64,000 nucleotides of DNA from an uncultured Candidatus Saccharibacteria bacterium. Lineage in GTDB: Bacteria > Patescibacteriota > Minisyncoccia > Phycocordibacterales > UBA2100. Below are positions 26,615 through 44,363 of the stretch, one piece after another. Position numbers and translations under genes: made by a program. Each line of letters starts with the position of its first letter. Within the stretch, counting starts at the first letter, position 1. The stretch is taken from the NCBI GenBank assembly GCA_964471165.1, contig CAYYEX010000002.1:60965-124964 (forward strand). Direction: 5' to 3'. The notes beneath the pieces were generated by a model that searched no databases, was not told the origin of the DNA, and saw only the letters and a list, made by a program, of their open reading frames with translations.

Positions 26615-26617
26615 GGC

Positions 26618-27622: not shown

Positions 27623-27649
27623 AAAAAGGATGCGCAGGCATCCTTTTTC
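27623..27649. terminator. bidirectional intrinsic terminator AAAAAGGATGC-gcag-GCATCCTTTTT
   Basis: perfect hairpin flanked by A-run and T-run between convergent genes. Confidence 0.75.
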
Positions 27650-27989
27650 ATTGACTACTCCCCATCATCGTAATGGAGATTCCAGCGTAGACGATAATCG
27701 GTACGATAGAGACGAGGCAGTAGTATGGAGCACCATACAGGCCCAGTAGGTATTGTCCGGTATGCGCCGGTGGACCGAATGGATACGTTACGGTTGACGG
27801 CGTCCAGATGTAAATACCACCCACCGGCGGGCCGACCGTGGTCCAAATCGCCTGGTTGTAGCAGAAAATAATCTGCGTAATAGGGCCGCCGAACGGATTC
27901 GTTTGCGCAACGGCAGCGGTCGGTGCCAAAAGAAGGAGTACACCCGCGAGCATTCCTGCGATTGTGCGCATACGTACAGTATACGACAT
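27648..27989 (-). CDS. small exported protein, VirB2/TrbC-pilin-like candidate
   Basis: signal peptide MSYTVRMRTIAGMLAGVLLLLAPTAAVAQ then about 85 aa with two hydrophobic segments and two Cys; start uncertain (27989 or 27971). Confidence 0.4.
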   Translation of the reverse strand: MSYTVRMRTIAGMLAGVLLLLAPTAAVAQTNPFGGPITQIIFCYNQAIWTTVGPPVGGIYIWTPSTVTYPFGPPAHTGQYLLGLYGAPYYCLVSIVPIIVYAGISITMMGSSQ

Positions 27990-28020
27990 TGATGGACACG
28001 GGTGCGTTATACTTTGAATA

Positions 28021-28890
28021 ATGAAGCACCCGGTGTTCCTGACGCTTTCCGTCGCGGTCATCTTTGTACTCGTTGGCTTGTATTTTATTGAACGTCAGCG
28101 TGCCGTCACCCCGAATGGAGCAAGTGCATCGTGGGAAACTGTCGGGGGATACATCGAGCCCACCGACTCGATTTCTGAGCAACCAACACAAGCACAACCG
28201 CTAGTTGAGACCGATAATAACCCGGAGACTCTCGTGATTCCTGTCGCAACAACATCGGCGACAAAGAAGCCCGCAAACGCGCCTGCAAAAGATGATGGTG
28301 TGTTTGACTACAACGCAATGCTCGCACAACTGCAGCATGAAACTACGTCGAACGCTTCTGCACAGGCAGATAAAACATTTGAAAAATTGATGGGTGCCTT
28401 TTCGTTCGCCCCTGCTATCGCAGCCCCGGCACAAAAAGTGAAGACGCCCGAGCAACAGGCTCTCTATATATACGGCAACGAAATCGGCTCGCGAATTAAG
28501 GGTTTCGCCGCCGTGAACCCAAATATGGCTCAAACACTCACTAATCAGATTAACCACCGCACCGAACCCTCCGCTGGAGTCCCCGTACGTAACCTTGGCA
28601 CCCGCTATATTGCGCTCGGAGAGAGTATTCTTGCAATCCAAAATGTTCCGCCCTCGGTCGAATCTGCCCACCATACGCTCGGAGAATCCTATCTTCATCT
28701 TGGTGAGGCGCTCAGCCGCATACCTGATGCAACCGAAGACCAGGCATTTATTGCTGCTATTACCACATACAACAACAAGGCCGACTCATACACGCGAGCG
28801 TTCGTCGGCATGGTTACACTGTTTTCAGCACTCAATGTCACATTCGAAGAAACTGACCCTGGTTCCGTTTTTAGCTTCCGTCATAACTGA
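28021..28890 (+). CDS. hypothetical membrane-anchored protein (paralog of the next gene)
   Basis: N-terminal TM; C-terminal motif ...ITTYNNKADSYTRAF... matched by ...LLRTYNEKEQGIYDSF... in 28926-29783. Confidence 0.5.
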   Translation: MKHPVFLTLSVAVIFVLVGLYFIERQRAVTPNGASASWETVGGYIEPTDSISEQPTQAQPLVETDNNPETLVIPVATTSATKKPANAPAKDDGVFDYNAMLAQLQHETTSNASAQADKTFEKLMGAFSFAPAIAAPAQKVKTPEQQALYIYGNEIGSRIKGFAAVNPNMAQTLTNQINHRTEPSAGVPVRNLGTRYIALGESILAIQNVPPSVESAHHTLGESYLHLGEALSRIPDATEDQAFIAAITTYNNKADSYTRAFVGMVTLFSALNVTFEETDPGSVFSFRHN

Positions 28891-28925
28891 CAGATATCCC
28901 ATTTTTTCCCGAGATTGAGCCACGA

Positions 28926-29783
28926 TTGCACAAATCGCCGAGGTATACTTTTAGTGTGCAGAAATTACGCGCGATACTCGGCGGCTCTTCTCCTATTGCG
29001 ATGACCGCTCTCGTTTCCGTTCTCGTGCTTGGCGGTGTTACGACGGCGCGCGTTGTAGCAACCATACGCCCCCCAGTTTCACCCCCTGTTGTTGCGGCCG
29101 CAGTGGTAGATACCACGAATGCCGATGAGAGTGCAGATTGGCAGCAGCAAATGCTGCTCCTTGGCCAGACGACCGAGACCGACGCGAGTGCAGCGACATC
29201 GACCGACCATCTCGCGCTCATCGGACCGATGGTAATGGGCGAGATTTTTGGCACCTATGACTCAATCCGTGCAAGTGGTAACTACACACAAACAGATTTG
29301 CGCGCAGCAGCAGAAAAAATTGGCTCGTATATGAAAGCAGCAGTGGCCTACGAAGCGTTCGAGATTACAGACTTTGCAACAGATGCTGATGCCTCAAGTG
29401 AGCGTGTGCGCACATACCGCGCAGAATTGCAATCGGCGCTCGAGCCACTCGCCTCTATTCCTGGAGCTGAATATGAAATCTATGGACGCTATGTGGAAAC
29501 AAGCGATTCTAAATACCTTGAGCAACTGAGAGATGCTGCAAACAAGTACCGCTCAAGTGCGGCGAGTGCCTCCTTGCTCACCGTCCCCCGCGATGCGGTC
29601 AATTATCACAGAGACTTGCTAAACTCGCTGCGCGCATTCGCCTCCGTTCTCGACGGTCTCGCCGGTCACGCCGACGACCCGTATGCATCAATTGCACTGC
29701 TGCGCACATACAACGAAAAAGAGCAGGGTATTTACGACTCGTTCAACCGCATGCGTTCCTACTACGCGAAAAAAGAGCTATGA
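28926..29783 (+). CDS. hypothetical membrane-anchored protein (paralog of the previous gene)
   Basis: N-terminal TM; shared C-terminal motif with 28021-28890. Confidence 0.5.
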   Translation: MHKSPRYTFSVQKLRAILGGSSPIAMTALVSVLVLGGVTTARVVATIRPPVSPPVVAAAVVDTTNADESADWQQQMLLLGQTTETDASAATSTDHLALIGPMVMGEIFGTYDSIRASGNYTQTDLRAAAEKIGSYMKAAVAYEAFEITDFATDADASSERVRTYRAELQSALEPLASIPGAEYEIYGRYVETSDSKYLEQLRDAANKYRSSAASASLLTVPRDAVNYHRDLLNSLRAFASVLDGLAGHADDPYASIALLRTYNEKEQGIYDSFNRMRSYYAKKEL

Positions 29784-31342
29784 AAAAGAAATTTCTCATA
29801 GCAATCACTATTCTGTGCACCGGGCTCTCACCGATAGTAGCTTTTTCAGCGGCTGACGACGTTTTTACGTGCAGCAAAAATGGACAGGCGACGGGAAGTG
29901 CTGGCTCTCAAGTTCCACTTGGTGGTCCGTACGTCCCCGTTGCCGACTATGCAGTAGAGCTCAACACCGGGTTACTGGTTTACAAAGAATGCGTACTGCG
30001 TGTGCTAGCGACCACTAAACGAAAAGCAGCTCTCGCAAGTGTCGACAACCAAACACTGACCCGATTCAACGCATATCCATCACGCGAGCTTGGAAAGGAA
30101 GAGGTGCAATTGAGCGATAAGACCGTCCTGCGGTATCTCAAAAATGACAGCCTTTCGAACTTTAGTCCTACCGTGCAAGGGAAAGTAAAACAAGCAATTG
30201 CTCGTGGCTACAGTGCCTCGCGCGATCCTCGGACGGCATTTATTTGTGAATACACGGGTGACCTCAACGCTGTGTATAGTGGTGTTCCGATTGGAAATTA
30301 CTGGGACGGATTTAATGCAGTCGCCGATGACCCTGCATGCAGCGTCCTCTCCGCATCAGACTTAGGCTACGGCGCGGTCATTGGGCAGGGTCAATACGAA
30401 GTCTATAAAAACATGCAGCGTTACAACGCCGGGCAAGGTGTATACGACGTCTGGCACGAAGATGAGAACGGTTTCCATATTACAGATACACCTGGGCAAG
30501 TTGTACTTCAACAGGGGATTCAGTCGGTGCAGTCCTCGTATAAACAGGCACAAGAAGCCGACGACATTGGAGAGATGGTCGACGGACTCTACCTTGGTGT
30601 TACCAACCAGGTACTCACACCAGGAACTTCCGGAACATCGGGTGGCCTTTCCGCTATTACACAGGCACTCGGTGGAGCACTCTCATACATGGCACAGGTT
30701 GCGCAAGGTGCGGGCACAGCCTACACAGAAGCAAATGCAAACGTCACGGTCGGTATTCTGCAGGGTGCGCTTGCACTTGAGCAGCAGTACAACGCGGTTA
30801 TGTCTTCGACCGCATCTATGTTCACACAAACAAATGCGTCGCTTCGTACAAAAGAAGCACAATGCTTCACGTCGATTGCTGGGGCAATCTGTCAGTCGGG
30901 AACTATTTCTGGCTCTACATGCACGGGAGTATCAGGCGGCACGCTTACCATCGCCACCTCCACTGCATTCTCGCAAAAGGTAATCGATGCGAACGTGCGC
31001 ACTCTCGCCACTGCAACGGTTACAAACCTCAACGCCTCGAATCAAATCATTACCCGTCTAAACGCAATGATTACGGCGCTGCGCGCGAACCCTACAGAAG
31101 CAGCACAAACTGCGGCGCTCGCGCAACTAGCTGCGCTCAACCCACATAATGCACAACAAAAGAACGATGCACAGACGAACCAGCAAGCACTCACGCAAAG
31201 TATGACCACGCTTCTCTCAACGACATTCGATGGTTGGGCTGCAGCCGAGCCTGTTGGGTGGTGCAACATCGAAGTTCAATCGAACAAAGATGCCTGGACC
31301 TCGTGCTGGAGCGGAAACGCTGCCGCATGTCCAACGCCTTAA
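29780..31342 (+). CDS. large secreted Cys-containing hypothetical protein
   Basis: signal peptide MKKKFLIAITILCTGLSPIVAFSA; 520 aa; about 14 Cys; Gln/Thr/Ala-rich C-terminal half. Confidence 0.5.
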   Translation: MKKKFLIAITILCTGLSPIVAFSAADDVFTCSKNGQATGSAGSQVPLGGPYVPVADYAVELNTGLLVYKECVLRVLATTKRKAALASVDNQTLTRFNAYPSRELGKEEVQLSDKTVLRYLKNDSLSNFSPTVQGKVKQAIARGYSASRDPRTAFICEYTGDLNAVYSGVPIGNYWDGFNAVADDPACSVLSASDLGYGAVIGQGQYEVYKNMQRYNAGQGVYDVWHEDENGFHITDTPGQVVLQQGIQSVQSSYKQAQEADDIGEMVDGLYLGVTNQVLTPGTSGTSGGLSAITQALGGALSYMAQVAQGAGTAYTEANANVTVGILQGALALEQQYNAVMSSTASMFTQTNASLRTKEAQCFTSIAGAICQSGTISGSTCTGVSGGTLTIATSTAFSQKVIDANVRTLATATVTNLNASNQIITRLNAMITALRANPTEAAQTAALAQLAALNPHNAQQKNDAQTNQQALTQSMTTLLSTTFDGWAAAEPVGWCNIEVQSNKDAWTSCWSGNAAACPTP

Positions 31343-31346
31343 CAAT

Positions 31347-33929
31347 ATGACTATTTCTCTCTCACGAATCCAAAGTTTCTGCATCGCACTCCTCCTGGGA
31401 CTCGTGCTTATGCTCGGCAGTGCCTCGATTGCAAGTGCCCAAGCAAAGCACATGTCGGGGCAGGACTACCTCAACAAAGTGAATGAGCAGCTCGTCGCTG
31501 CGGGCAGACCGACTATGCAGGGTAGCAGTGCGACAGCGCTGGTGGGAATTATCAATAGCATGGGTGACACCGAGTTTGGGTATCTACAGAGAGCTAACGA
31601 CACTCGTACCGCAAATGGCGCAACATGGCTCACGACTGGTGGAGATATTACAAGGGTCACCGCAGACGCCACTCTCGACCCGGAAACAGGGGTGGTGGAC
31701 CCCACAAAACTCGAAAAAGTCGCAGCCGAAAACGCCATCCAAAAGCCTGCGGGCTGCTCGATATTAAAGTGGAACTTTGAGGACTGTATCGCCGGCCCTA
31801 TCGCACGCTTCGCAAGTCGCATGATGCTCTCGCTCGGTGGAAACATTCTGCGCCTTTCGGGGTCTATCTTCGACTTCGGCGTGAATCACGTCATTATCGA
31901 TTTCAAGGCAACGCTGAGCGGCCCATTGATGACCATCATCGATGGGGGGTGGACATTCTTCCGCGATATCGCAAATATTTTTATAATCGGCATCTTCACG
32001 TTCATTGCAATCAGCCTCATTCTCGGACTCAAAGAGTACGGGCAAAAGAAGCTTGTTGCTCGCGTGCTCATTATTGCGGTGTTAATGAACTTCAGTCTTT
32101 TGTTTACGAAAATCATCATTGATTCATCGAATTTTATTGCCTACGCCATCTATAGTCAGACAGCAGGAGCAGGTGCCCCCACATTCAGTATTGCGGATAA
32201 AGTGCTCTCTCCGCTCCACGTAACAGGTGTGTGGGATACCTCTGCGCTCGCTCAGCAAGTGTACGGTCAGGAAAACAGCGGGGGAGCGCTTAAGGCCTTC
32301 GGGTTCGGACTCTTTGGATTCATTATATTAGTCCTCTTGGCCGCTGTTATTTTCTACGGCGCGTTTCTCATCATTGCGCGGGCCATCATGTTCGTGGTGC
32401 TCATGCTCACCGCTCCGATTGCATACGCCACCTATCTTGCACCGAACTTCGAAGCGAGTGAGTTCGGGTGGAGCAACTGGTGGAAGTCACTCATCAACAA
32501 CGCCGCCTTCGCGCCACTACTCATGATATTTCTTTCGATTGCGATTCTTATCATGCAAACTGCCTCCACTTCGGTCAATCCGGCCGACACACTGGGCGCT
32601 CTCGGCACCGACCCGACTAAACAGGTGCTCGCCGACGGCTGGAAGGTGCTCTTCGTCTACATTCTTGGCACAGGTCTCCTGTTCATCTCGTTCCGTCTCT
32701 CAAGCTCGCTCGCAGGTTCAATTAGCGGCATAAAAGTAGGTCAAATGATTGCTGGAGTACCACTCGCTCTTGGTACCCGCGGTGCGGCGCGCCTCGCTCA
32801 GCTTTCGGCGGGCCGTGCGTCCCAAGCGCTTGCGAACAACGCGGACGATCGTATGAAAAAGGCGCGCTTGCATGCAATTGCAACGCAGGACCAAAAAGAT
32901 TGGGACAAGGTGGAGCGCATCCGCAAGCAAAAAGCTGCATTCGACAAGGGTGCACAGAGCAGCTTCAACCCGCTTAATACCGCACTTGGAAAAGCGCTCG
33001 CAGGAAGTGCCGGTCTCAAGGGCGTCCTCGCGGGAGAGAAGAAAGGCAGCTTTGCTGGTTCGATGGAAGACCGTGCTAAGGCAGCGGAGGCAAAGGCAAA
33101 GGCAATGCAGCTCACCGAAGCGGACAAGAAAGAAATGCGCAAACAGGCTTCAGAGGAAATCCAGGCGGCAAACAATACGAAACTCGATGAGGCAGCAAAG
33201 AACCTCGAGACCGCAAAACTCGAACTTGAAAAGGCAAAGACCGAGCAGGCCGCTTCGCAAAACCCTGAACTCGTCCGTGAGGTTGAGGAGGCAGTTACAA
33301 AGAACGCAATTGCACGTGCCCCAGATATGGATAAGGCACAAACCGAAGTCCATGTCATTGAACAAAGAAAGAGCGAAATCGTTGGCGGTCACGACAGTGC
33401 AATTAACGAAATGGTGAAAAAGACGGAGGAACTCTCGGGTCAAGCACGCGAGAATCATGTACGCCAACTCGAGGCCCGCCGCGCTGAGCGACAAACCGCA
33501 ATCAAACAACAAGACGCCCATATCGCTGACGCTCGAGAGCGAATCACCACACTCAAAAAAGAAATCGAGGCTCCACGTACGGAACTGCTTAAGCGTCAGG
33601 AAAAAGCGGCCCGTGAACTTGCAGAGCGTAATGCAGGAGTTCAATCAGCAGAAGGAACCCTTGCAACTGCCAAGACAAAGGCGGAGGCCGTTCCGAACGC
33701 AGCCGAGGTACAAAAGCTTGGAAACGCTAAGATAAAAACGGCGGAAGAGGCAGTTGCAGGGGGAGTACAGGGCCTTTCGAGGAAGGAGGCCGGTATCCTC
33801 GGTGGGCATGCAGGAGAACACGTGATTCAACATCACATGGACGCAACGTTCAAAAAGAAGACCGGGGCGGAGAGTATCGCAGAGGCGGTGAAGGGCATCC
33901 AGGCAGCGGCAAAGAAAGAGGAGTCGTAG
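31347..33929 (+). CDS. VirB6/TrbL-like polytopic membrane protein with long C-terminal K/E/A-rich coiled-coil tail
   Basis: signal peptide; about 250-aa extracytoplasmic region; at least 6 TM helices (FIIGIFTFIAISLILGL, LIIAVLMNFSLLF, FGLFGFIILVLLAAVIFYGAFLIIARAIMFVVLMLTAPIAY ...); about 400-aa charged C-terminus; start placed at ATG 31347 rather than the overlapping 31230. Confidence 0.4.
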   Translation: MTISLSRIQSFCIALLLGLVLMLGSASIASAQAKHMSGQDYLNKVNEQLVAAGRPTMQGSSATALVGIINSMGDTEFGYLQRANDTRTANGATWLTTGGDITRVTADATLDPETGVVDPTKLEKVAAENAIQKPAGCSILKWNFEDCIAGPIARFASRMMLSLGGNILRLSGSIFDFGVNHVIIDFKATLSGPLMTIIDGGWTFFRDIANIFIIGIFTFIAISLILGLKEYGQKKLVARVLIIAVLMNFSLLFTKIIIDSSNFIAYAIYSQTAGAGAPTFSIADKVLSPLHVTGVWDTSALAQQVYGQENSGGALKAFGFGLFGFIILVLLAAVIFYGAFLIIARAIMFVVLMLTAPIAYATYLAPNFEASEFGWSNWWKSLINNAAFAPLLMIFLSIAILIMQTASTSVNPADTLGALGTDPTKQVLADGWKVLFVYILGTGLLFISFRLSSSLAGSISGIKVGQMIAGVPLALGTRGAARLAQLSAGRASQALANNADDRMKKARLHAIATQDQKDWDKVERIRKQKAAFDKGAQSSFNPLNTALGKALAGSAGLKGVLAGEKKGSFAGSMEDRAKAAEAKAKAMQLTEADKKEMRKQASEEIQAANNTKLDEAAKNLETAKLELEKAKTEQAASQNPELVREVEEAVTKNAIARAPDMDKAQTEVHVIEQRKSEIVGGHDSAINEMVKKTEELSGQARENHVRQLEARRAERQTAIKQQDAHIADARERITTLKKEIEAPRTELLKRQEKAARELAERNAGVQSAEGTLATAKTKAEAVPNAAEVQKLGNAKIKTAEEAVAGGVQGLSRKEAGILGGHAGEHVIQHHMDATFKKKTGAESIAEAVKGIQAAAKKEES

Positions 33930-33941
33930 CACAATCACTCT

Positions 33942-34532
33942 ATGGAACCAGACACAAACAACATCGACTTGAATAAGGCGCTCGCAGAACGTTTTGGAAC
34001 GCTACCGAAAGTCGTTCAAGACGCGATTACATCGGCCGACGTGCAAAAACACATGCGCGACCTGGCAGAAAGTAACAAACTCCATGTCGATCAGTACCAG
34101 TTACTCGAAAACAACGTCATGCTCACGCTGCTCGGTTTCCAGCAGGTTGCAGAGCTCACGTCTCACCTCCAAAAAGACCTCGGTGTAACAGAGGAGGTGG
34201 CAATTCAGCTCGCCTCCTCTGTTTCCGAAATCGTGTTTAGTCCGATTCGGGGGGAAATGGAGCGCGCACTAAGCCATCCGAGCGCTGTGCAAGAAGCAAT
34301 TTCGGATGTTGAGGCTGTGCGTGCGCAGGAAATTGACGCTGCTGCCACACCCGCTGCTCCCGAGTCCACACCAACAACTCCTGCTGCAGCAACTCCCGTC
34401 CTACCTGCAACTCCACCCGCACCTGCCCCAGAAGAAAAGTCAGTTCGTGCACAAATTGCGCCGACGTACGCCACAACCGCAAGCCACGAACGCAAAACAA
34501 TTACCGGGGACCCCTATCGCGAGCAACTGTAA
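33942..34532 (+). CDS. hypothetical protein with Pro/Ala/Thr-rich C-terminus
   Basis: 196-aa ORF in the cluster operon; no motif recognised. Confidence 0.4.
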   Translation: MEPDTNNIDLNKALAERFGTLPKVVQDAITSADVQKHMRDLAESNKLHVDQYQLLENNVMLTLLGFQQVAELTSHLQKDLGVTEEVAIQLASSVSEIVFSPIRGEMERALSHPSAVQEAISDVEAVRAQEIDAAATPAAPESTPTTPAAATPVLPATPPAPAPEEKSVRAQIAPTYATTASHERKTITGDPYREQL

Positions 34533-34658
34533 AGCACTCGAACATCGGATTGCCAAGAAAATCGACGAGCTCTTAGAGAATCCCGCCACAATTCTATAAA
34601 CATATTGGAGTCGTTTGACACGTCGGTCTGTATATCTCACGGGGTATACTGATACTGC

Positions 34659-35169: not shown

Positions 35170-35829
35170 ATGCCGCAAGCAGGATCAAATACCCGCAACG
35201 ACAATAAATCGACACAGGAGTTTGTGCCGATTAAAGAAGTGCGCGACGGTATTGTGGTAATGAAAGACAATGGCTTGCGTGCGATACTGCTCGCCTCATC
35301 GATTAACTTTGCGCTGAAATCCGAAGATGAGCAGACAGCGTTCATCGTGCAGTTCCAGAACTTTCTGAACTCGCTCGACTTTTCCTGCCAGATATTCGTA
35401 CAGTCGCGTCAGCTCGATATTCGCCCGTATGTCGCAACACTCGAAGAAGCTTACAAAGGTCAACTCGACGACCTCATGCGTATCCAAATACGCGAATATA
35501 TTGAGTTCATTCGGAGCTTCACCGAGGCGGCAAATATTATGACGAAGAATTTCTTTGTCGTGGTCCCGTACACACCAGCGGTGATTCAAACAGGGAAGGG
35601 GTCTTCGTTCAATCCGTTCAGTAAAAAAAAGGCCAACGCCGCAGAGGAGAACCGAACATTCGAAGAACAGGCAACGCAGCTTGAACAACGAATCTCGATA
35701 GTGCAACAAGGCCTTGTGCGCACGGGTGTACGCACCGTGCAACTCGGCACTGAAGAGGCAATTGAGTTGCTCTATAAGATGTTCAATCCAGGTGAAGACT
35801 CAAAACCGATGTCACTTTCACAACAGTAA
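35170..35829 (+). CDS. virB4: VirB4/TraE-type ATPase, N-terminal domain (separated from the ATPase domain by one in-frame TAA)
   Basis: FVPIKEVRDGIVVMKDNGLRAILLASSINFALKSEDEQTAFIVQFQNFLNSL matches the conserved N-terminal domain of conjugative VirB4 ATPases; same reading frame as 35833-37839. Confidence 0.6.
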   Translation: MPQAGSNTRNDNKSTQEFVPIKEVRDGIVVMKDNGLRAILLASSINFALKSEDEQTAFIVQFQNFLNSLDFSCQIFVQSRQLDIRPYVATLEEAYKGQLDDLMRIQIREYIEFIRSFTEAANIMTKNFFVVVPYTPAVIQTGKGSSFNPFSKKKANAAEENRTFEEQATQLEQRISIVQQGLVRTGVRTVQLGTEEAIELLYKMFNPGEDSKPMSLSQQ

Positions 35830-35832
35830 TCT

Positions 35833-37839
35833 ATGGGACTTTTCGAATCAATTTTCAATAAGAAGCCAGAGCAGGGGCCCAATGTGCTCCCGGTTCTTCC
35901 AGACGAAATCTACCAAACTGGCGTACTGGACCTGCAAGACGTAATTGCGCCGCACGCACTCAAAATAAGTTCTCACGAACTTGATTTGGGAGAGAAAATT
36001 GCGCGAACGTTCTTCGTTATTTCGTACCCACGATTCCTCACAACTGGGTGGTTTGCACCAATCATTAACATGGACAAGGTTATCGACATTTCTATCTTCA
36101 TCCATCCGATGGATACGAACGAAATGCTCCGTAAGTTTCAGAAGAAGGTTGCCGAGGTCCAGAGCCAGATTTCTACTCGAGAAGAGAAGGGAATGGTGCG
36201 CGACCCGATGCTCGACACCGCGTATTCCGACCTTGAACAGCTGCGTGATTCGCTCCAGCAAGCGCAAGAAAAAATATTCGATGTGGGTCTGTATATGACA
36301 ATCTATGGTGCCACCCGTGAAGAGGTCGACAAAACCGAGTCCGAGGTTCGCTCGATTCTTGAAAGTCGTCTTGTGTACATTCGCCCAGCACTCTTTCAAC
36401 AGGAGCAGGGATTCCGCTCAGTGCTTCCAATTTCTACCGATGAGCTCGATGTGCACACAAAGCTAAACTCCGCGCCACTTTCATCAATCTTTCCGTTCAT
36501 TTCGTTCGACCTCACCTCTGACAGGGGAATTCTCTACGGAATCAATCGACACAACTCCTCACTCATTCTCTTCGACCGTTTTTCTCTCGAAAACTACAAT
36601 TCGGTAACGTTTGCTAAATCTGGTGCGGGTAAGTCCTACACGACGAAGCTTGAGATTCTTCGCTCACTCATGTTCGATACCGAAGTAATTGTCATCGACC
36701 CTGAACGAGAATATGAATACCTTGCAGAGACTGTCGGTGGTCGCTACTTCAATATTTCGCTCTCGTCCGAACACCATATCAATCCGTTCGACCTTCCCAT
36801 CCCGAGAGAAGACGAGGCACCGTCTGATGTGCTTCGTAACAACATCATCACGCTCGTCGGACTGTTTCGCATCATGCTCGGTGGCCTCACACCAGAAGAA
36901 GATGCGGTAATTGACCGAGCTATTACGGAAACGTACGCCCTCAAAGACATTACTGCTGACGCGAATTTTGCTGCGGTTGAGCCACCGCTTCTCTCAGACT
37001 TCGAACTCGTGCTTTCCGGCATGGAAGGCTCCGAATCTCTCGTGCAGCGACTGTCTAAGTACACAAAGGGAACATGGTCGGGCTTTATGAATCGTCCGAC
37101 CAACGTGGATATGAACAAGAAGCTTGTTGTTTTCTCAGTTCGCGACATGGAAGACGACTTGAAGCCAGTCGCGATGTACATTATTACGCACCACATTTGG
37201 AACACAGTGCGTAAAGAACTTCGCAAGCGACTCCTCATCATCGACGAGGCGTGGTGGATGATGCGCTCTGAAGACACGGCATCGTTCCTGTTCTCAATCG
37301 CAAAACGTGGTCGTAAATACTTCCTCGGTATCTCCACCATCACACAAGACGTGTCCGACTTTCTCAACTCACCGTACGGTGTGCCGATGATTACGAACTC
37401 ATCTATTCAAATGTTGCTTCGACAATCGCCGACGTCGGTTGACCTTGTGCAGCAAACATTCAAACTCTCCGACGAAGAAAAATATCTCTTGCTTGAGTCC
37501 GATGTGGGAGAAGGTATCTTCTTTGCCGGCCTCAAGCACGTGGCAATCAAGGTGATTGCCTCCTACACAGAGGATCAAATCATCACATCAGACCCGTCTC
37601 AGATTCTCGCAATAAAGAAAGCTAAACAAGATCTCCAGGTAGCAAGCGATGCTCGTACCGCCGCGGTTGAACAACAGCGTGCTGCCATCGCTGCACCAAC
37701 CCCCGTTTCTGCGGCGGTCTCCGCAGCCCTCGAAGCAGAAACCCCCGTTGCGGCTGTTGCTGAGATACCCGCTCCTGTTGCAGTCGCTCCAGCAACGCCT
37801 CCTGTAGCTGAACCCCCGCTCGCTCCTGGAGTTGTATGA
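35833..37839 (+). CDS. virB4: VirB4/TraE-type ATPase, C-terminal ATPase domain
   Basis: Walker A AKSGAGKSYTTK; VIVIDPEREY; Walker B LLIIDEAWWM; 668 aa. Confidence 0.8.
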   Translation: MGLFESIFNKKPEQGPNVLPVLPDEIYQTGVLDLQDVIAPHALKISSHELDLGEKIARTFFVISYPRFLTTGWFAPIINMDKVIDISIFIHPMDTNEMLRKFQKKVAEVQSQISTREEKGMVRDPMLDTAYSDLEQLRDSLQQAQEKIFDVGLYMTIYGATREEVDKTESEVRSILESRLVYIRPALFQQEQGFRSVLPISTDELDVHTKLNSAPLSSIFPFISFDLTSDRGILYGINRHNSSLILFDRFSLENYNSVTFAKSGAGKSYTTKLEILRSLMFDTEVIVIDPEREYEYLAETVGGRYFNISLSSEHHINPFDLPIPREDEAPSDVLRNNIITLVGLFRIMLGGLTPEEDAVIDRAITETYALKDITADANFAAVEPPLLSDFELVLSGMEGSESLVQRLSKYTKGTWSGFMNRPTNVDMNKKLVVFSVRDMEDDLKPVAMYIITHHIWNTVRKELRKRLLIIDEAWWMMRSEDTASFLFSIAKRGRKYFLGISTITQDVSDFLNSPYGVPMITNSSIQMLLRQSPTSVDLVQQTFKLSDEEKYLLLESDVGEGIFFAGLKHVAIKVIASYTEDQIITSDPSQILAIKKAKQDLQVASDARTAAVEQQRAAIAAPTPVSAAVSAALEAETPVAAVAEIPAPVAVAPATPPVAEPPLAPGVV

Positions 37840-38837
37840 AATATCTCGCTGCGTTTCTCGTGCTTGTTGTCGCCACACCTGTACTCGCGCTCGATATTGG
37901 TCCCTCTCTCTATATAGCCGTTGCCCCGCAGTATCCAGCCCCCGCTCAGCCCGTTACGCTCACCATACAAAATCCGCTCGTCGACCTTTCGGAGCGAGAA
38001 ATTACGTGGAGAAATAATGGTGTTGTTGTGCTCACGGGGGAGGGTGAGACCATCTATCGAACTACTGCACCGAACGCAGGAGAGCGCATCGACATGACTG
38101 TTAGTGTTGCCGGCCTTGAAGAAATGGCCTCAATTTCAATTGCACCTTCTTCGGTGGATCTCTTGTGGGAATCCAATTCGTTTGCCCCCGGGCTATATCG
38201 TGGGCGACACCTCCCCAGTCGAGGCTCCGTGCTCACACTCCACGCCCTCCCGCATCTCACACAAAAAGGCGTCGAACTCCCCGCGTCACAACTTGTTTTT
38301 ACATGGAAGCAGGAGGGGCAGGTTGTTATGTCCGGAAAGGGAAAAAGTTCATTCTCTATTCCCGTCGCTGAGTTTGTCGATACAAGTACTATTTCGGTCA
38401 GCGTGACAACTTCGGATAAAACTATTGGCGCGGAGCGCTCTGTTGTGATTAACGCCGCAGAGCCAGTTGTGCGTCTGTACTTTGACCACCCGCTCTTTGG
38501 TGTCATGTATCATAATGCACTCACCGCCCGCTCAATCGTATCTGAGACCGAAGTATCATTCGCAGCAATTCCGTATTTTGCCCAGGCCACAGGAGCCAAC
38601 GATAAACTTTTTTCGTACATTTGGCGCGTGAATAGAACTACTATCGAACCAAATAGCGAACAACCCAATACAATTACCATAAATGCTGGCCCGGCAGGAG
38701 GTCCGGCTCAGATTGAGGTGTCACTCACACACACAAAAAACTTTCAACTTGATGCACGCGGCACATGGAATGTAACGTTCGGTTCAATCGCCGGTGGTAG
38801 TAGCGGCGTAGTGGGGGATCCATTCACAGGACAATAA
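37836..38837 (+). CDS. hypothetical secreted protein
   Basis: signal peptide MKYLAAFLVLVVATPVLA; 333 aa. Confidence 0.45.
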   Translation: MKYLAAFLVLVVATPVLALDIGPSLYIAVAPQYPAPAQPVTLTIQNPLVDLSEREITWRNNGVVVLTGEGETIYRTTAPNAGERIDMTVSVAGLEEMASISIAPSSVDLLWESNSFAPGLYRGRHLPSRGSVLTLHALPHLTQKGVELPASQLVFTWKQEGQVVMSGKGKSSFSIPVAEFVDTSTISVSVTTSDKTIGAERSVVINAAEPVVRLYFDHPLFGVMYHNALTARSIVSETEVSFAAIPYFAQATGANDKLFSYIWRVNRTTIEPNSEQPNTITINAGPAGGPAQIEVSLTHTKNFQLDARGTWNVTFGSIAGGSSGVVGDPFTGQ

Positions 38838-38839
38838 TC

Positions 38840-40069
38840 ATGAATAAAATTATCCAATTCGTTACAGCCGCACTTCTTGTAGCTATTGTTGGTGGCTTTG
38901 GCGGTTGGTATTTTTTTATTAAAAACAAAACGGCCGAAACAGACAATCTTATTGCGGGGCGTGGTGAGGATGCCGCATCTTTTACTGGTGAAGTCGGCAG
39001 CACCTATCAAAACATAATCACGGACTCCTCGGAGACTACCCCGGCCTCTACAGGACAGCGTGCGCCGCGTTTGTGGCATGTAACGAAATCCCCCATTGCA
39101 GGATTTGGATTCGGTCCGGGAGGACTGACCGTGTACATCGCTGAGCGAGCAACTGGAAATATTTTGCGTGCCGCCCCTGATACAAGTTCAATCCAACGCC
39201 TCACCAACACACTCGTACCGAAGGTCCGCGAAGCACTCTTTAGTCGCTCGGGGGATGTTATCTTACGCTCGACGAATGATGCAGGCTCAGTTACCACTTT
39301 TGCTGCCACTATCGCTACCACTACTGTTATCACATCCACCTCCACACCAAACACACTCGAGGGTACATATCTTCCGCAGAATATTGTGGCGATTGACGCA
39401 CCAAACAATCAACCAACATCGAAAGGCATCTTCTTTATGACCCGCCTGCCTGAAGGAGGATCTGTTGGGGTATCATCGCTTTGGAAGGGTACCTCGATTA
39501 AAAAAATGGTTTCCTTGCCGCTGTACCAATGGCGAGCGCAGGCACTCTCGGACGGTCGGGTAGTACTCACACAAAATGCAGCAGACGATGTTGTCGGGTA
39601 CTCATTTATAGTGAGTCCTGCAGGTGTTATGAAGCCGCTTGTTGGCAATCTCCCCGGCCTCACACTTACCTATCACGATACGGGAGATGCGTTTCTTTAC
39701 GGAGTTGCCGGCGCAGGCACGCTGTCTTTGTATGTAAAAGCAGGAACGTCAAACGCCGTTAAACTGCCGATTGCAACCACTGCAGACAAATGTGTTTGGG
39801 CCCCCGGCGTGGGACTCATTGCATATTGCGCGGTACCAACTTCAGCACCCGCATCCCCGTACCTGACGAACTGGTACGGAGGGGCAACACATACAATCGA
39901 TGTCTGGTGGAAAATTGAGGCAGCTGAGGGTACCGCAGAACGTTTCTTTGTCCCCGACACGCGAACACAGTACGACGTAGAAGATCCCGCAACTGATGAG
40001 ACCGGTTCTTACCTCGCCTGGAGAAACGCTGCGGATAAGTCTCTGTGGCTGCTTAGAATCAGTGAATAA
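38840..40069 (+). CDS. hypothetical membrane-anchored periplasmic protein
   Basis: N-terminal TM IIQFVTAALLVAIVGGFGGWYFF; 409 aa. Confidence 0.45.
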   Translation: MNKIIQFVTAALLVAIVGGFGGWYFFIKNKTAETDNLIAGRGEDAASFTGEVGSTYQNIITDSSETTPASTGQRAPRLWHVTKSPIAGFGFGPGGLTVYIAERATGNILRAAPDTSSIQRLTNTLVPKVREALFSRSGDVILRSTNDAGSVTTFAATIATTTVITSTSTPNTLEGTYLPQNIVAIDAPNNQPTSKGIFFMTRLPEGGSVGVSSLWKGTSIKKMVSLPLYQWRAQALSDGRVVLTQNAADDVVGYSFIVSPAGVMKPLVGNLPGLTLTYHDTGDAFLYGVAGAGTLSLYVKAGTSNAVKLPIATTADKCVWAPGVGLIAYCAVPTSAPASPYLTNWYGGATHTIDVWWKIEAAEGTAERFFVPDTRTQYDVEDPATDETGSYLAWRNAADKSLWLLRISE

Positions 40070-40076
40070 TGTATCT

Positions 40077-40637
40077 ATGACAAAACGAAAACACCTTATT
40101 GTCTCCAGCTGCGCCTTTGCACTCTCTTTTGCTCTCCCTGCACTCGTTCTTGCCGCCGAAGGATTCGTTCCACTGACAAAAGATGCCGACTTTCAAAAGA
40201 TTTTCGGCGTGGGTAGCAATGCCGGCTCGAATCCTCAGGACCTGAGCACGTTCATCAGCGGCGCATTTAAGGTTACTCTTTCTATCGGAGCAATTCTCGC
40301 AGTGCTTCGAATTGCGTATGCAGGGTATCAGTACATGTCTTCTGACGCGTGGGGAGAAAAATCACACGCAAAAGAAATACTTGGCGATGTAACAATCGGT
40401 ATTTTATTGCTTCTGAGTGTTTGGCTCATCCTTAACCAAATCAACCCAAACATTCTGCAGCTCAAAATAAGTGGTGTGAATAGCTCCGGAGGATCATCGG
40501 GCGCTTCAAGTGCGACAACAAATACAGGCACGACTCAAGCTCGAACTCAAAATCCAACAAACGTAGTACGAAATACAGAAACGGGGGACTGCACCTACTA
40601 CGATGCAATGGGGGTAGCGTATTCAGCGAGCTGCTAG
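40077..40637 (+). CDS. VirB2/TrbC-like pilin candidate
   Basis: signal peptide; two hydrophobic helices (FISGAFKVTLSIGAILAVLRIAYAGY and VTIGILLLLSVWLILNQI) in TrbC-like arrangement; Ser/Gly/Thr-rich C-tail; start at ATG 40077. Confidence 0.5.
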   Translation: MTKRKHLIVSSCAFALSFALPALVLAAEGFVPLTKDADFQKIFGVGSNAGSNPQDLSTFISGAFKVTLSIGAILAVLRIAYAGYQYMSSDAWGEKSHAKEILGDVTIGILLLLSVWLILNQINPNILQLKISGVNSSGGSSGASSATTNTGTTQARTQNPTNVVRNTETGDCTYYDAMGVAYSASC

Positions 40638-41101
40638 GCCTCGGCAGCTGCGTACTTGATGACAACGCGTCGGTTCCGCCCCTCACCCAAGGACTCTGTT
40701 TTTACATTCGGTTCGTCTTGTAGGGTAGTGTGAACAATAAGACGTTCGTATGCACTCATTGGCGAAAGCTCCACATCGTATTGAAAACTGCGAGCTCGTT
40801 CTGCCATCATCAGCGCCTTGGTCTGTAAATCTTTAATTTGTTTTACGCGGTAGTCGTTTACGTCGATGAGGAAATGGAGATCCTGTGCGCCTTCCGTTGG
40901 CACGCGTTTCTCGGCAATCTTTTTTACCAACATATCAATCGCATGTATCGTATCGCCGTGACCACCGATAAGGGCGCGCGCCTCCGATGTTTGTATTGAA
41001 AAAATCATCTGCCCGGCAACTTCGGACCGTGTAACGACGGCATCGGTAACCCCCATCGACGCAAGTAGTTCTCCAAGAATGGTTTCAACCATGTCGTGCA
41101 T
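40634..41101 (-). CDS. jag: Jag/KhpB-like R3H/KH-domain RNA-binding protein
   Basis: GVTDAVVTRSEVAGQMIFSIQTSEARALIGGHGDTIHAIDMLVKK (KH-like) and C-terminal R3H-like region; downstream of yidC as usual. Confidence 0.7.
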   Translation of the reverse strand: MHDMVETILGELLASMGVTDAVVTRSEVAGQMIFSIQTSEARALIGGHGDTIHAIDMLVKKIAEKRVPTEGAQDLHFLIDVNDYRVKQIKDLQTKALMMAERARSFQYDVELSPMSAYERLIVHTTLQDEPNVKTESLGEGRNRRVVIKYAAAEA

Positions 41102-41240
41102 GGAGGGCACTATACCCTATGAGATAAACTCGTAGCAACGTTACGACGGTACCGCGACGTGTCGTAATACTTGAATTGGTTCTAAACCAGCATCTGTATC
41201 TCACGGGGCAGCTTAACGCGCTGCTCCAAAATACATACCC

Positions 41241-41975
41241 CTACATCGGAATCTTCCCGTGGAAACGTCGCCCCACATAAAACTCCTGCCCAATCATAAA
41301 GAGGTTACTCGTTACCCAGTAGAGTGGTGCCGCGGCTACAACAAAGTACGACACAACCCCAATAACACCGGGGAGTACATAGCGGGCTTGGACATCGAAG
41401 CTTTTTGCCATCTCTTCGGAGAATGACGCCTCGGTTGGTGTAATCGTACCCTTGGGACCCATGGAAAGCCGCGTGTATATCGCCTGTGTTACTGCAACCA
41501 AGACTGCAAGAACAATGCTGTGGCTTCCCATATCAATAAGCCCGAGGAAGCGCATGTTTACCAAATCTGGTACCGCAACAAACGAATAGAGCATTTCAGG
41601 GTTTACCAGTGGGAAGCCGCCCTGCGCAAATACCCAGTAAAGACCAAGCAAGATGGGGAGTTGGAGCAAGAGGAGAAGGAACCCCGAAAACGGATTTACT
41701 TTGCGCTCACGGTAGAGTGCAAACATTGCCTTACCCTGTTCTTCGGGCTTGTCTTTATACTTCTTCTTTAACTCTTCTATCTCTGGAGCAACGGCTTTCA
41801 TTGCCATCTGCGACTTGATTGCCTTGCGTGAGAGAGGGAACAGGATGAAACGCACAATAATGGTCACAATAATGACCGCGATACCGATATCGTGCGTTGG
41901 CACGATATCCACAAAATAAACGAGGGCGTTATATATCGGAAGATAGATGACTGCATGAAACGCGGCTCCAATCAT
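41241..41975 (-). CDS. yidC: membrane protein insertase YidC (short form)
   Basis: 244 aa; five TM helices; ...GFLLLLLQLPILLGLY... YidC/Oxa1 signature; between rnpA and jag. Confidence 0.8.
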   Translation of the reverse strand: MIGAAFHAVIYLPIYNALVYFVDIVPTHDIGIAVIIVTIIVRFILFPLSRKAIKSQMAMKAVAPEIEELKKKYKDKPEEQGKAMFALYRERKVNPFSGFLLLLLQLPILLGLYWVFAQGGFPLVNPEMLYSFVAVPDLVNMRFLGLIDMGSHSIVLAVLVAVTQAIYTRLSMGPKGTITPTEASFSEEMAKSFDVQARYVLPGVIGVVSYFVVAAAPLYWVTSNLFMIGQEFYVGRRFHGKIPM

Positions 41976-41999
41976 AGACGATGATTGTACTCTTTTGCG

Positions 42000-42326
42000 C
42001 TACTTCACGCTACGCAATCGCTCGATGAGCTCTGCTACATCTGCTCGTATTACCGCGTATGGAGCGTCAACGGCCTGTCTCTTTGCCGTGAGAACAAGTG
42101 ACATTCCGACAGGCAGAGTGACTCCGTGCAGAGCAGTGCGCATACGGCGTTTTATCCCATTTCGCACCACGGCCTTACTTGAGACCTTTTTTGAAACGAC
42201 GCACGCAACCTTGGATGTGGTGCCTTCATGTTTTGTGCGGGATAGCGAAAAAAGGCTTGAAATAAGCCTTTTATCAGGACTCAGCCGTCGAATTTCCGCC
42301 CCCGTAAGCCGGTGTTTCTTTGGCAT
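42000..42326 (-). CDS. rnpA: RNase P protein component
   Basis: 108 aa; basic; RNR-like motif region; sits between rpmH and yidC. Confidence 0.75.
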   Translation of the reverse strand: MPKKHRLTGAEIRRLSPDKRLISSLFSLSRTKHEGTTSKVACVVSKKVSSKAVVRNGIKRRMRTALHGVTLPVGMSLVLTAKRQAVDAPYAVIRADVAELIERLRSVK

Positions 42327-42349
42327 ACGAACACGGAATCAGGTTGAAA

Positions 42350-42490
42350 TTATACGGTCAGCTTCGCGCGGCCCTTGCGGCGGCGGCGAGTGAGAACGGA
42401 TACGCCTTTCTTGCTCTTGGAGCGGATACGGAATCCGTGAGTTGCCAATCGCTTTTTCTTTTTCGGCTGGTATGTTCGCTTGGTCGACAT
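42350..42490 (-). CDS. rpmH: 50S ribosomal protein L34
   Basis: hand translation of the minus strand: [46 protein letters not shown] (46 aa; too short for the ORF track). Confidence 0.9.
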
Positions 42491-42767
42491 GCGGCACAGT
42501 ATGCCTTTGCGTGAGAAAAAATGCAACGCTCTTACCCCTCACAGAGAGCATGTAGTTTTTTCGGCGTTCGCAGCGCGGCGGCGCGAGACAGAGGGAATTT
42601 TCAACAGAAAATTACCCGGCCGCAAAAACTACATGCTCTCGCACACTTTTCACTATCCCCGCGTTATCCACATGGTTGTCAACATCGCTACGAGGGTCGG
42701 TCAAGATTCCCTCCGCGCTTGATGTGCGTATAATGCTCAGCATTGTTCTCACTGAATCGATGCCGTA
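42491..42767. promoter_or_regulatory. rpmH-dnaA intergenic region with a perfect DnaA box TTATCCACA (42664-42672); candidate oriC half or dnaA promoter
   Basis: consensus DnaA box; divergent origin-type gene arrangement. Confidence 0.55.
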
Positions 42768-44126
42768 ATGAAATATATGATGACTAACCGTGAATTATGG
42801 CAAAACGCACTTGTTCAAATTGAACTTGGTACCACAGAAGCATCGTTTCGAACTTGGTTTCGTAACACCGACATCTCTCATCGCGATGGGGGAACTGTCC
42901 AGGTTGCTGTTCCGTCCAAAATAGTAAAGGAGTGGCTCTCTGACAAGCATCACAAGTTGATTCTCAAGGCGCTTCGCAGCCTCGATAGCTCTATTCGCAC
43001 AGTGGAATACGTTGTGCACCGCACCGCACCGCAAACTGACCGCAAACCACAGAAACAAGAGCCGCAGCAAAATGCATCGTTCGACTTACAGTCGCTCTAT
43101 ATAGACAAGCGCGACAACCTCAATCCGCGCTACACCTTCGAAACGTTTGTAGTGGGCCCGTTCAATCAACTCGCTCATGCCGCTGCAAAGGCAGTGCTCG
43201 AGCGCCCGGGTCTCGCGTACAACCCACTCTTTATCTATGGCTCCACTGGTCATGGAAAGACGCATCTTATCCAGGCTATTGGAAACTATTTCAAGAAGTC
43301 GCACGCGAACAAAAAGGTGCTTTATGTAACGAGTGAACGCTTTGCAATTGACTACATCAATGCAGTTCGTGCAGGACACGCAAACAATTTCAAAGACCAG
43401 TACCGGCAGTACGACGTACTTATAATGGACGACGTACAGTTTATTGCGAACACGGAGAAGACCCAGGAAGAGCTCTTCCACCTCTTCAACGCGCTTCGTG
43501 ATAACAATAAACAGATTGTATTCTCGTCCGATAAGCACCCAGCACTCCTCCCCGGCTTTGAAGACCGTCTCAAGGGCCGCTTCTCAGGCGGCATGATTGC
43601 GGAAATCCCTGAACCCGACGTTGAAAGCCGTACGGCCATAATTTCGGCGAAGATTGAGCAACATGGATTTTCTATCCCCGACGACATCATTCAGTACATC
43701 GCTGAAAACGTGAGGGGCAACATTCGTGAACTCGAGGGCGTGCTCAATATGATTGTTTGTAAGTCTCAGTTGAAGGGAAAGGCTATTTCCCACGCAGACG
43801 TACGTGCACTCATTAAGCACAATGTGAAGCCAAATCGCGGGGTTTCTATCGATGAAGTCGTGCGCCGTATTGCGCAATATTACGAAGTACCGGAAAAGAG
43901 TATCTACGAAAAGACTCGTAAGAAGGAGGTCGTAAAGCCACGACAAATAATCATGTATGTACTTCGTGAAGAATTCGCTGTTTCGTACCCATCAATTGGG
44001 GAGAAGCTTGGTGGTCGTGACCACACGACCGTTATTCACTCGTGCGAAAAAATCAAGGAAGAAATGAAAACATCCAGTTCACTCGAACAGGAGCTTGATC
44101 ACATTCGCGCACTCATTCACGCCTAG
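42768..44126 (+). CDS. dnaA: chromosomal replication initiator DnaA
   Basis: 452 aa; Walker A GSTGHGKTHL; box VII; C-terminal domain IV ...GGRDHTTVIHSCEKI... Confidence 0.9.
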   Translation: MKYMMTNRELWQNALVQIELGTTEASFRTWFRNTDISHRDGGTVQVAVPSKIVKEWLSDKHHKLILKALRSLDSSIRTVEYVVHRTAPQTDRKPQKQEPQQNASFDLQSLYIDKRDNLNPRYTFETFVVGPFNQLAHAAAKAVLERPGLAYNPLFIYGSTGHGKTHLIQAIGNYFKKSHANKKVLYVTSERFAIDYINAVRAGHANNFKDQYRQYDVLIMDDVQFIANTEKTQEELFHLFNALRDNNKQIVFSSDKHPALLPGFEDRLKGRFSGGMIAEIPEPDVESRTAIISAKIEQHGFSIPDDIIQYIAENVRGNIRELEGVLNMIVCKSQLKGKAISHADVRALIKHNVKPNRGVSIDEVVRRIAQYYEVPEKSIYEKTRKKEVVKPRQIIMYVLREEFAVSYPSIGEKLGGRDHTTVIHSCEKIKEEMKTSSSLEQELDHIRALIHA

Positions 44127-44363
44127 GGTATGTGGATATCGCGTGTATACCAGGGGGGAGAACACGGGGTACAGCAGTATGGAGTTTCGATGAACAACGT
44201 GGTGATATTCTCATTCGCTCGTGAATCCACTCGTTACACATCGCTCGCACAGCAGTTATCCACCACTCATCAATACAAGAATTATCGCGTGTTTCCTAGC
44301 TCAATTTGAGTTATCCAGTTATCCCCGTAACTAGTAGTAGTAATAGTCTTTAATTAAATAACT
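44127..44363. promoter_or_regulatory. dnaA-dnaN intergenic region with several DnaA-box-like 9-mers (TGTGGATAT, TTATCCACC, TTATCCAGT) and an AT-rich stretch before dnaN: candidate oriC
   Basis: boxes found by eye at about 44131, 44256, 44311; AT-rich 44320-44363. Confidence 0.55.

Follow-up and report, generated by a model that had tools for sequence, protein, structure and literature searches.

An in-frame TAA between a trsD-like gene and virB4 in a Patescibacteria type IV secretion locus is very probably an ordinary gene end

We asked whether a single in-frame TAA codon interrupts the gene for the VirB4 ATPase of a type IV secretion system (T4SS) in an uncultured Candidatus Saccharibacteria bacterium, or whether it simply closes one gene ahead of the next. 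The window, the whole stretch of 64,000 nucleotides that was analyzed, carries two open reading frames, ORF1 and ORF2, which lie in the same frame and jointly encode 219 + 668 = 887 amino acids (Table 1). A preliminary description of this locus had read them as one VirB4 gene split by the stop codon. Its coordinates, the shared frame, and the total of ~887 aa were all reproduced from the sequence, and the two ORFs do together cover a full-length VirB4, but the split gene itself did not hold up. Instead, the TAA is very probably the ordinary end of a trsD-like gene, which forms a two-gene pair with virB4 in a chromosomal Patescibacteria T4SS of the monoderm MPF-FATA (pGO1/pSK41-like) kind. Since such a pair is a normal two-gene arrangement, no gene would be broken at the junction and no recoding would take place there.

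Table 1. Positions in the window of the ORF1-ORF2 junction and of the neighboring T4SS genes
Feature	Coordinates	Strand	Description
trsD-like gene (ORF1)	35170..35829	+	219 codons plus TAA; encodes a separate protein of 219 aa whose homology is to the first ~180 residues of the VirB4 N-terminal domain
TAA, genuine stop codon of ORF1	35827..35829	+	79 of 79 orthologues have a stop here
Spacer TCT (3 nt) between ORF1 stop and ORF2 start	35830..35832	+	Read from the sequence
virB4 (TrsE/TraE-type) ATPase gene (ORF2)	35833..37839	+	ATG at 35833, 668 codons plus TGA; natively begins ~180 residues into canonical VirB4
Walker A motif AKSGAGKS, ORF2 residues 261 to 268	36613..36636	+	Pattern search of the translation; intact
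Walker B motif LLIIDE, ORF2 residues 467 to 472	37231..37248	+	Pattern search of the translation; intact
Ala/Pro-rich low-complexity C-terminal tail of the ATPase	37585..37836	+	Outside VirB4 homology
prgI, PrgI/VirB3-like small membrane protein, 168 aa	34659..35165	+	Pfam PF12666 PrgI, E = 1.9e-10, 41.5 bits (cutoff, 27)
Upstream T4SS genes: 899-aa membrane protein and 196-aa protein of unknown function	31230..34532	+	Syntenic in 65 of 68 and 70 of 71 loci
Downstream T4SS genes: 333-aa protein, 409-aa protein, and T4SS pilin-like protein	37836..40637	+	Syntenic in 70 of 72 and 68 of 69 loci

The product of ORF2 scored 367.1 bits against NF045971 (VirB4-like, CD1110 family; cutoff, 325 bits) and matched both Pfam P-loop_TraG (E = 4.5e-24) and the VirB4 of PDB entry 4AG5 (E = 4.9e-41). 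The canonical VirB4 architecture of ~800 aa is not contained in ORF2 by itself: its alignment to NF045971 covers model positions 181 to 733 of 752, while positions 2 to 117 are matched by ORF1. Alignments to the family models stop at ORF2 residues 571 to 584, and the orthologues of ORF2 range in length from 604 to 725 aa.

Four independent VirB4 family models matched ORF1 (E = 1.1e-10 to 2e-5), in each case collinearly, along the model's N-terminal end. In these profile searches ORF1 aligned to positions 96 to 233 of 894 in NCBIfam NF045975 (E = 1.1e-10), to the aforementioned segment of NF045971 (E = 1.2e-5), and to positions 4 to 179 of 792 in TIGR00929 (E = 2e-5). The NCBIfam TrsD/TraD model NF041427 was also matched collinearly, at 27.9 bits (E = 1.8e-6) and below its cutoff of 200 bits; by this score ORF1 is a remote relative rather than a member of NCBI's narrow Firmicutes TrsD subfamily. 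Its stand-alone size fits the TrsD/TraD family (~200 to 230 aa). Among at least 8,000 homologues of ORF1, the best 120 are all 192 to 240 aa long and terminate at one shared, conserved motif, FNPGE..KPM.L, which in the orthologues sits just before the stop codon. Furthermore, 2,411 representatives of 50%-identity clusters matched ORF1, the best 150 of which measure 146 to 443 aa, and a fused VirB4 was found neither among the 120 closest homologues nor among these best 150 of 2,411 representatives. Precomputed annotation lists PF26593 ("TraC-like") for a protein identical to ORF1 and for all 120 relatives, and the COG term "VirB4 component" for the ORF1 protein. An AlphaFold2 model of ORF1, made from an alignment of 18 low-diversity sequences, had a pLDDT of 58.6, and the top 13 matches of a fold search with this model were all to R388 TrwK/VirB4, the best of them weak (E = 7e-3; TM-score, 0.41). 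Given the mediocre pLDDT and the low TM-scores, we count the fold search as supportive only.

We compared the junction at 79 orthologous loci from species-representative genomes of different Patescibacteria species, anchoring the start of ORF2 on its conserved methionine. At every one of them a stop codon closes the ORF1 homologue, and a VirB4 ATPase gene comes next. Orthologues consistently encoded as two separate genes had been named beforehand as the observation that would speak against a split gene, and among the options of the preliminary description a genuinely two-piece VirB4 proved to be the correct one. The stop codon is TAA at 49 loci, TAG at 23, and TGA at 7. Spacers range from 1 to 496 nt; they are no longer than 11 nt at 46 of the 79 loci, with lengths of 1, 2, 4, and 5 nt common, and measure at least 48 nt in about a third of the orthologues. 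The two genes share a frame in 22 of 79 pairs overall and in 10 of the 46 with short spacers, where chance would give ~1/3. On these counts the shared frame in this genome is a matter of chance, and its junction is one of many equivalent ones. The position of the ORF1 stop and the start methionine of ORF2 are kept down to ~62% identity, and the pattern M-[AGS]-[LIF]-x-D at the start of ORF2 is kept across the 79 loci. For ORF1, dN was 0.06 to 0.20 and, because dS was saturated in most pairs, a dN/dS of ~0.05 was obtained from the sole computable pair; for ORF2, dN/dS was 0.02 to 0.03. These values indicate strong purifying selection on both genes.

The genes around the junction are also conserved. 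prgI opens a tightly packed prgI-trsD-virB4 unit, and in 74 of 76 evaluable loci it precedes the ORF1 homologue. The 899-aa membrane protein (31230 to 33929) gave a weak CD3337/EF1877, VirB6-like match (NCBIfam NF046089, E = 6.4e-5), and the pilin-like gene (39996 to 40637) matched Pfam PF18895 T4SS_pilin (E = 1.1e-5), while the ORFs at 28021 to 31342 had no Pfam match. Throughout the cluster, gene order is kept in at least 95% of evaluable loci; jag, yidC, dnaA, and dnaN stand beside it at 40634 to 45461. Shine-Dalgarno motifs were found in 6 of 53 genes, against a background of 13%. Spacers at the neighboring operon junctions are 4, 3, -4, and 2 nt, and the end of virB4 overlaps the next gene in the sequence ATGA (37836 to 37839). 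A weak or absent ribosome-binding site before 35833 had been pointed out earlier. None is present there, but this absence is uninformative, since Shine-Dalgarno motifs are at background level genome-wide, so that the genome does not use them, and operon spacers run from -4 to +4 nt.

The preliminary description had also offered a nonsense mutation, a sequencing error, and stop-codon readthrough as explanations, each of which can be set against these data. A recent nonsense mutation, by which a once-fused virB4 was inactivated and the T4SS left as a pseudogene remnant, would account for two ORFs that lie in frame only 3 nt apart and jointly span the full-length VirB4 model. However, a fused relative is absent from the 79 orthologous loci, the 120 closest homologues, and the 150 best cluster representatives; the stop is ancient, may be any of the three stop codons, and is retained together with the start methionine of ORF2 despite considerable divergence; and both pieces have dN/dS far below 1 (~0.02 to 0.05), with the Walker motifs intact. 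A pseudogene is therefore rejected, on an orthologue comparison without any fused gene and on selection that is not relaxed, and we assign this explanation virtually no probability. A false stop codon created by a sequencing or assembly error is a general possibility in metagenome assemblies, and nothing beyond that speaks for it here. Over 3,960 nt that include the junction, the window matched both its own ENA contig, ERZ27247837, and a Logan assembly built separately from run ERR3094302 with 0 mismatches, and the stop stands at the same place in all orthologues, so an error deserves next to no credence.

Programmed readthrough of the stop codon, or reassignment of TAA, would give a fused VirB4 of 889 aa alongside or in place of the two pieces, and the in-frame arrangement in this genome, with the sense codon TCT between stop and ATG, would allow for it. 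Among the orthologues, however, in-frame pairs occur at or below the frequency expected by chance, there is no fixed spacer length or frame, and the stop may be TAA, TAG, or TGA. Few contexts terminate bacterial translation as efficiently as UAA followed by U, which likewise counts against readthrough. Reassignment is rejected, since TAA serves as an ordinary stop for more ORFs of the window (24 of 53) than either other stop codon, and since TAG and TGA take its place in some orthologues. Trace, fortuitous readthrough at this TAA is possible; judging from the orthologous junctions, a conserved readthrough function cannot be. The chance that readthrough or reassignment explains the locus is thus very slim. 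It is also quite improbable that ORF1 is an unrelated accessory protein beside virB4, its resemblance to the VirB4 N terminus being spurious and the ATPase working without an N-terminal piece. This would agree with an hmmscan search of Pfam-A, in which ORF1, pSK41 TrsD, and two relatives had no match even at E values up to 10, although the PF26593 model was most likely absent from the Pfam set used. It would also agree with a search of PDB sequences, in which the ORF1 alignment drew only a chance match (E = 0.76), and with the weak hhalign result (E = 0.028; probability, 1.8%; 56 collinear columns) for the same alignment, too shallow (Neff, 1.45) to settle the matter, against the single pSK41 TrsD sequence. 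Against it stand the four VirB4 models, whose collinear N-terminal matches to ORF1 are complementary in coverage to those of ORF2, the 13 top fold matches, all of them VirB4 chains, and the precomputed PF26593 and COG annotations. Furthermore, the same remote homology between TrsD and the VirB4 N terminus is reported in the literature (Quiñonero-Coronel et al. 2025, PMC12102498).

The reading as a trsD-virB4 pair can be compared with known systems. The staphylococcal plasmid pSK41 (pGO1/pSK41, the pGO1 subclass of MPF-FATA) carries its TrsD-TrsE (TraD-TraE) genes in the same order, with a small membrane protein, a ~220-aa TrsD, and a ~670-aa VirB4-like ATPase; the two latter products have 227 and 672 aa in pSK41 and 219 and 668 aa in the window. 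ORF2 residues 10 to 574 are collinear with residues 9 to 617 of pSK41 TrsE (E = 1e-35, 25% identity), and since the two ATPases align end to end, they share the same fission point. In the window, at all 79 orthologous loci, and in pSK41, the ORF1 counterpart lies directly upstream of a VirB4-like ATPase without the N-terminal ~180 residues. Altogether, sequence comparison has shown the fission point, the ORF1 stop, and the ORF2 start to be common to many species and to pSK41. Kinship of ORF1 with the staphylococcal TrsD is remote, given the hhalign E value of 0.028 and a score against NF041427 far below the cutoff. The spacer is 14 nt in pSK41 and 3 nt in the window. The operon of pSK41, a conjugative plasmid, also encodes a relaxase and a coupling protein, whereas the window cluster is chromosomal and stands beside dnaA.

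The trsD-virB4 pair is found in the T4SS of hundreds of ultrasmall Patescibacteria, and the arrangement is already known. PMC12102498, which assigns such proteins to TrsD by CONJscan profiles, ranks TrsD first in abundance among the T4SS components of Patescibacteria, counting 2,272 homologues, 1,664 of which adjoin VirB4. It also gives TrsD as essential in Ca. Southlakia epibionticum, whose T4SS was shown to be essential by Wang et al. 2023 (as cited in PMC12102498). The Patescibacteria (CPR) T4SS of that study and the window have the same set of VirB4, TrsD, PrgI/VirB3, a VirB6-like protein, and a VirB2-like pilin, with TrsD adjoining VirB4 in a chromosomal cluster near dnaA; there is no substantive difference, and the window is one more member, from a metagenome genome of Paceibacteria/Kaiserbacteria-like type. 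A cluster free of relaxase genes also belongs to the description of that system (PMC12102498). The anatomy of the junction (spacer, frame, and lack of a Shine-Dalgarno motif) is documented here and is not discussed in PMC12102498, and the junction statistics are all that the window contributes on the pair. Canonical single-chain VirB4 proteins, such as R388 TrwK (PDB 7O41/7O43) and the CD1110 family of Firmicutes ICEs, have the same content of an N-terminal domain and a RecA-like ATPase, and the structural matches are to TrwK. The canonical protein is one polypeptide of ~750 to 830 aa, whereas in the window a gene of its own encodes the first ~180 residues. The VirB3-VirB4 fusions of some conjugative systems likewise show flexible covalent connectivity of VirB3, the VirB4 N-terminal domain, and the ATPase, but as fusions they represent the opposite direction to the fission seen here, and none were found in Patescibacteria (PMC12102498).

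We infer that the TrsD-like protein and the ATPase would join non-covalently to give a complete VirB4 N-terminal domain. In the R388 structure, this domain is the region wrapped by VirB3 (residues 15 to 400; PMC9259494) and mediates VirB4 dimerization; by this likeness, the TrsD-like piece would be what docks the ATPase at the PrgI/VirB3 platform in the membrane, the gene for which lies immediately upstream. The position of the 3-nt spacer suggests translational coupling of ORF1 and ORF2. ORF2 would be translated by termination-reinitiation 3 nt past the ORF1 stop, as may be the case for other genes of this Shine-Dalgarno-free operon, and such coupling would yield roughly equimolar amounts of the two products. 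Tight coupling is not essential, since about a third of the orthologues have the longer spacers of 48 nt or more. A speculative and rather unlikely extension is that the fission is functional rather than neutral, the free TrsD-like subunit being a regulated adaptor that sets the timing and stoichiometry of VirB4 docking on PrgI/VirB3; in a weaker variant, trace readthrough of the TAA would supply a little fused VirB4 in the minority of genomes, this one included, whose two genes happen to share a frame. If true, the adaptor would give Patescibacteria a control point of their own over a T4SS that is essential and apparently non-conjugative.

For annotation, in-frame TAA-NNN-ATG junctions in the tightly packed, Shine-Dalgarno-free operons of Patescibacteria should not be read as nonsense mutations. 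We would annotate the locus itself as an intact and probably functional T4SS locus rather than one with a disrupted virB4.

The trsD-like ORF1 and the virB4 ATPase gene ORF2 share one reading frame, and their TAA-TCT-ATG junction falls exactly where the preliminary description, which read it as a VirB4 split by an in-frame stop, had placed it. The exact ORF1 protein turned up twice: on ERZ27247837, the ENA contig (298 kb) of the window itself, and in a Logan assembly built separately from run ERR3094302. Each is identical to the window across 3960 nt, junction included.

By homology, ORF2 is a VirB4-type T4SS ATPase, matching Pfam P-loop_TraG (E = 4.5e-24), NCBIfam NF045971 "VirB4-like, CD1110 family" (367 bits; cut-off 325) and PDB 4AG5 VirB4 (E = 4.9e-41), and both Walker motifs are intact (A, AKSGAGKS at residues 261-268; B, LLIIDE at residues 467-472). 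Its coverage of the VirB4 family models begins only near position 181, and the N-terminal ends left uncovered are matched collinearly by ORF1 (positions 2-117 of 752 in NF045971, 96-233 of 894 in NF045975 at E = 1.1e-10, and 4-179 of 792 in TIGR00929). ORF1 also matches NF041427, the model of a stand-alone "TrsD/TraD family conjugative transfer protein," at E = 1.8e-6, under the model cut-off. Precomputed annotations assign PF26593 "TraC-like" to ORF1 and all its relatives; a Pfam-A scan of these proteins gave zero matches, the copy used seemingly being without the PF26593 model. The AlphaFold model of ORF1 is mediocre (pLDDT 58.6), and in a fold search with it the top 13 PDB matches were R388 TrwK/VirB4 chains (best E = 7e-3, probability 0.98). 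Given the complementary model coverage and these fold matches, the proposed division into an N-terminal piece and an ATPase piece is correct in homology terms. Beyond the VirB4 homology, the ATPase carries an Ala/Pro/Val-rich, low-complexity C-terminal tail of ~85 aa (37585-37836), and such tails account for most of the length variation among orthologues (604-725 aa). The virB4 homologue at one orthologous locus, L027, is 1282 aa, about twice the usual ATPase ORF length, and may be a fusion to a downstream gene or have lost its stop.

Coordinates of the genes and elements discussed (window positions unless another sequence is named)
Feature	Position	Strand	Size and remarks
ORF1	35170-35829	+	219 codons; stop TAA at 35827-35829
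ORF2	35833 (ATG)-37839	+	668 codons; TCT between ORF1 stop and ATG
jag/KhpB (R3H)	40634-41110
yidC	41241-41975
dnaA	42768-44126
dnaN	44364-45461
pSK41 trsD	25886-26569		227 aa
pSK41 DUF87/VirB4-like ATPase	26584-28602		672 aa
L044 hairpin elements	L044:3870-3960 and L044:4605-4695		~90 nt

The stop could reflect a recent nonsense mutation, a sequencing error, readthrough or a genuinely two-piece VirB4. Homology searching from ORF1 gave at least 8000 hits, and the best 120 of them (identity down to 71%) are all 192-240 aa, belong exclusively to Patescibacteria (Paceibacterota, Kaiserbacteria, Parcubacteria) and end a few residues past a conserved FNPGE..KPM.L motif. To reach more distant homologues, 1.84 billion cluster representatives at 50% identity were scanned exhaustively with HMMER, giving 2411 matches; the best 150 (identity down to 35%) are 146-443 aa, none long enough for a fused VirB4. 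Six distant TrsD-like representatives (P0162, P0169, P0177, P0196, P0210 and P0225; 350-443 aa), too short for VirB4 fusions, have an N-terminal TrsD-like region plus a C-terminal extension. Scanning species-representative genomes yielded at least 550 orthologous loci, of which 80 were kept and 79 were evaluable. In 79/79, a stop codon (49 TAA, 23 TAG, 7 TGA) closes the ORF1 homologue and a VirB4 ATPase gene comes next on the same strand; this ATPase has a conserved start, M-[AGS]-[LIF]-x-D-[LF]. Substitution patterns indicate strong purifying selection on both genes (ORF1, dN 0.06-0.20 with saturated dS and dN/dS 0.054 in the only computable pair; ORF2, dN/dS 0.018-0.031).

Together, the homologues, the 79 loci, selection and the independent assembly exclude recent nonsense mutation, assembly error and conserved readthrough, so that of the readings first offered only the two-piece VirB4, encoded by separate genes, stands. 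There is no hint of TAA reassignment, since TAA is the commonest ordinary stop in the window (24/53). The spacer between the two genes spans 1-496 nt across the 79 loci and is ≤11 nt in 46; in-frame pairs number 22 of 79 (28% versus 33% by chance), and 10 of the 46 with short spacers. The in-frame arrangement of ORF1 and ORF2 is coincidental.

A weak or absent RBS before ORF2 had also been raised, and it carries no signal: Shine-Dalgarno-like motifs precede 6/53 long ORFs in the window (background 13%), and almost no orthologue has one before virB4. Apparently this organism does not use Shine-Dalgarno-led initiation. Since packing is tight throughout the operon (4 nt from prgI, the PrgI/VirB3-like gene, to ORF1; a 4-nt ATGA overlap between ORF2 and the next gene; 2 nt at the following junction), the 3-nt ORF1-ORF2 spacer is typical, and it suggests termination-reinitiation coupling. 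In six long-spacer orthologues (L059, L060, L061, L065, L067 and L071) a perfect or near-perfect TATAAT box precedes the virB4 start by just 7-15 nt, and in the window a TATACT (34645-34650) ends 8 nt upstream of the prgI ATG. Boxes so close to the start suggest leaderless or near-leaderless transcripts and, in the species of those six loci, a separate virB4 promoter.

In about a quarter of the orthologous loci (~19/79, including L019, L033, L036, L037, L042, L043, L044, L048, L049 and L069), the trsD-virB4 spacer is 75-105 nt and filled by a repeat that folds as one long imperfect hairpin with an A-rich centre (median z-score -2.9 versus shuffles). Short units repeated in tandem (cgtag, ctag, tacgaa, ctagtggc) make up its arms, whose sequence varies by species while the architecture is constant. 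In L044 a 92% identical copy occupies the prgI-trsD spacer, so that trsD is flanked on both sides. The element, absent from the window, may represent an intergenic repeat of the REP/MITE kind or else a regulatory/processing hairpin.

On the staphylococcal conjugative plasmid pSK41 (NC_005024) the genes likewise run small protein, trsD, VirB4-like ATPase. The pSK41 ATPase aligns end to end with ORF2 (ORF2 residues 10-574 against 9-617, 25% identity, E = 1e-35), and the fission point is therefore common to both. The split is already known: the trsD-virB4 pair is on record, with TrsD outnumbering every other T4SS component in Patescibacteria (2,272 homologues in 2,221 assemblies; 1,664 associated with VirB4) and listed as essential in Ca. 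Southlakia epibionticum (PMC12102498). Patescibacterial T4SS clusters are often near dnaA (PMC12102498), in agreement with the window, where jag, yidC, dnaA and dnaN, the chromosomal replication-origin region (40634-45461), directly follow the cluster. Cluster gene order is kept in at least 95% of evaluable loci. Upstream, a 520-aa ORF (29780-31342) and an 899-aa VirB6-like ORF (31230-33929) would overlap by 113 nt if each began at its first ATG. That start is provisional for the VirB6-like ORF, which public gene calls (L082, L083) begin at two different codons, giving 839 and 879 aa. Many of the closest genomes (L001, L002, L007 and others) are TPA assemblies titled "uncultured Candidatus Saccharibacteria," and equally close relatives are titled Kaiserbacteria, Paceibacterota or Parcubacteria. 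Saccharibacteria appears to be a generic or mistaken label here.

ORF1 and ORF2 are thus two conserved genes whose products jointly contain all VirB4 regions, and the 219-aa protein would act in trans, contributing the initial half of VirB4's N-terminal domain. [quoted passage not shown] Because the R388 domain contacts VirB3, and because ORF1 is encoded between prgI/virB3 and the ATPase, the likeliest role of the TrsD-like protein is to dock the ATPase onto the membrane platform.
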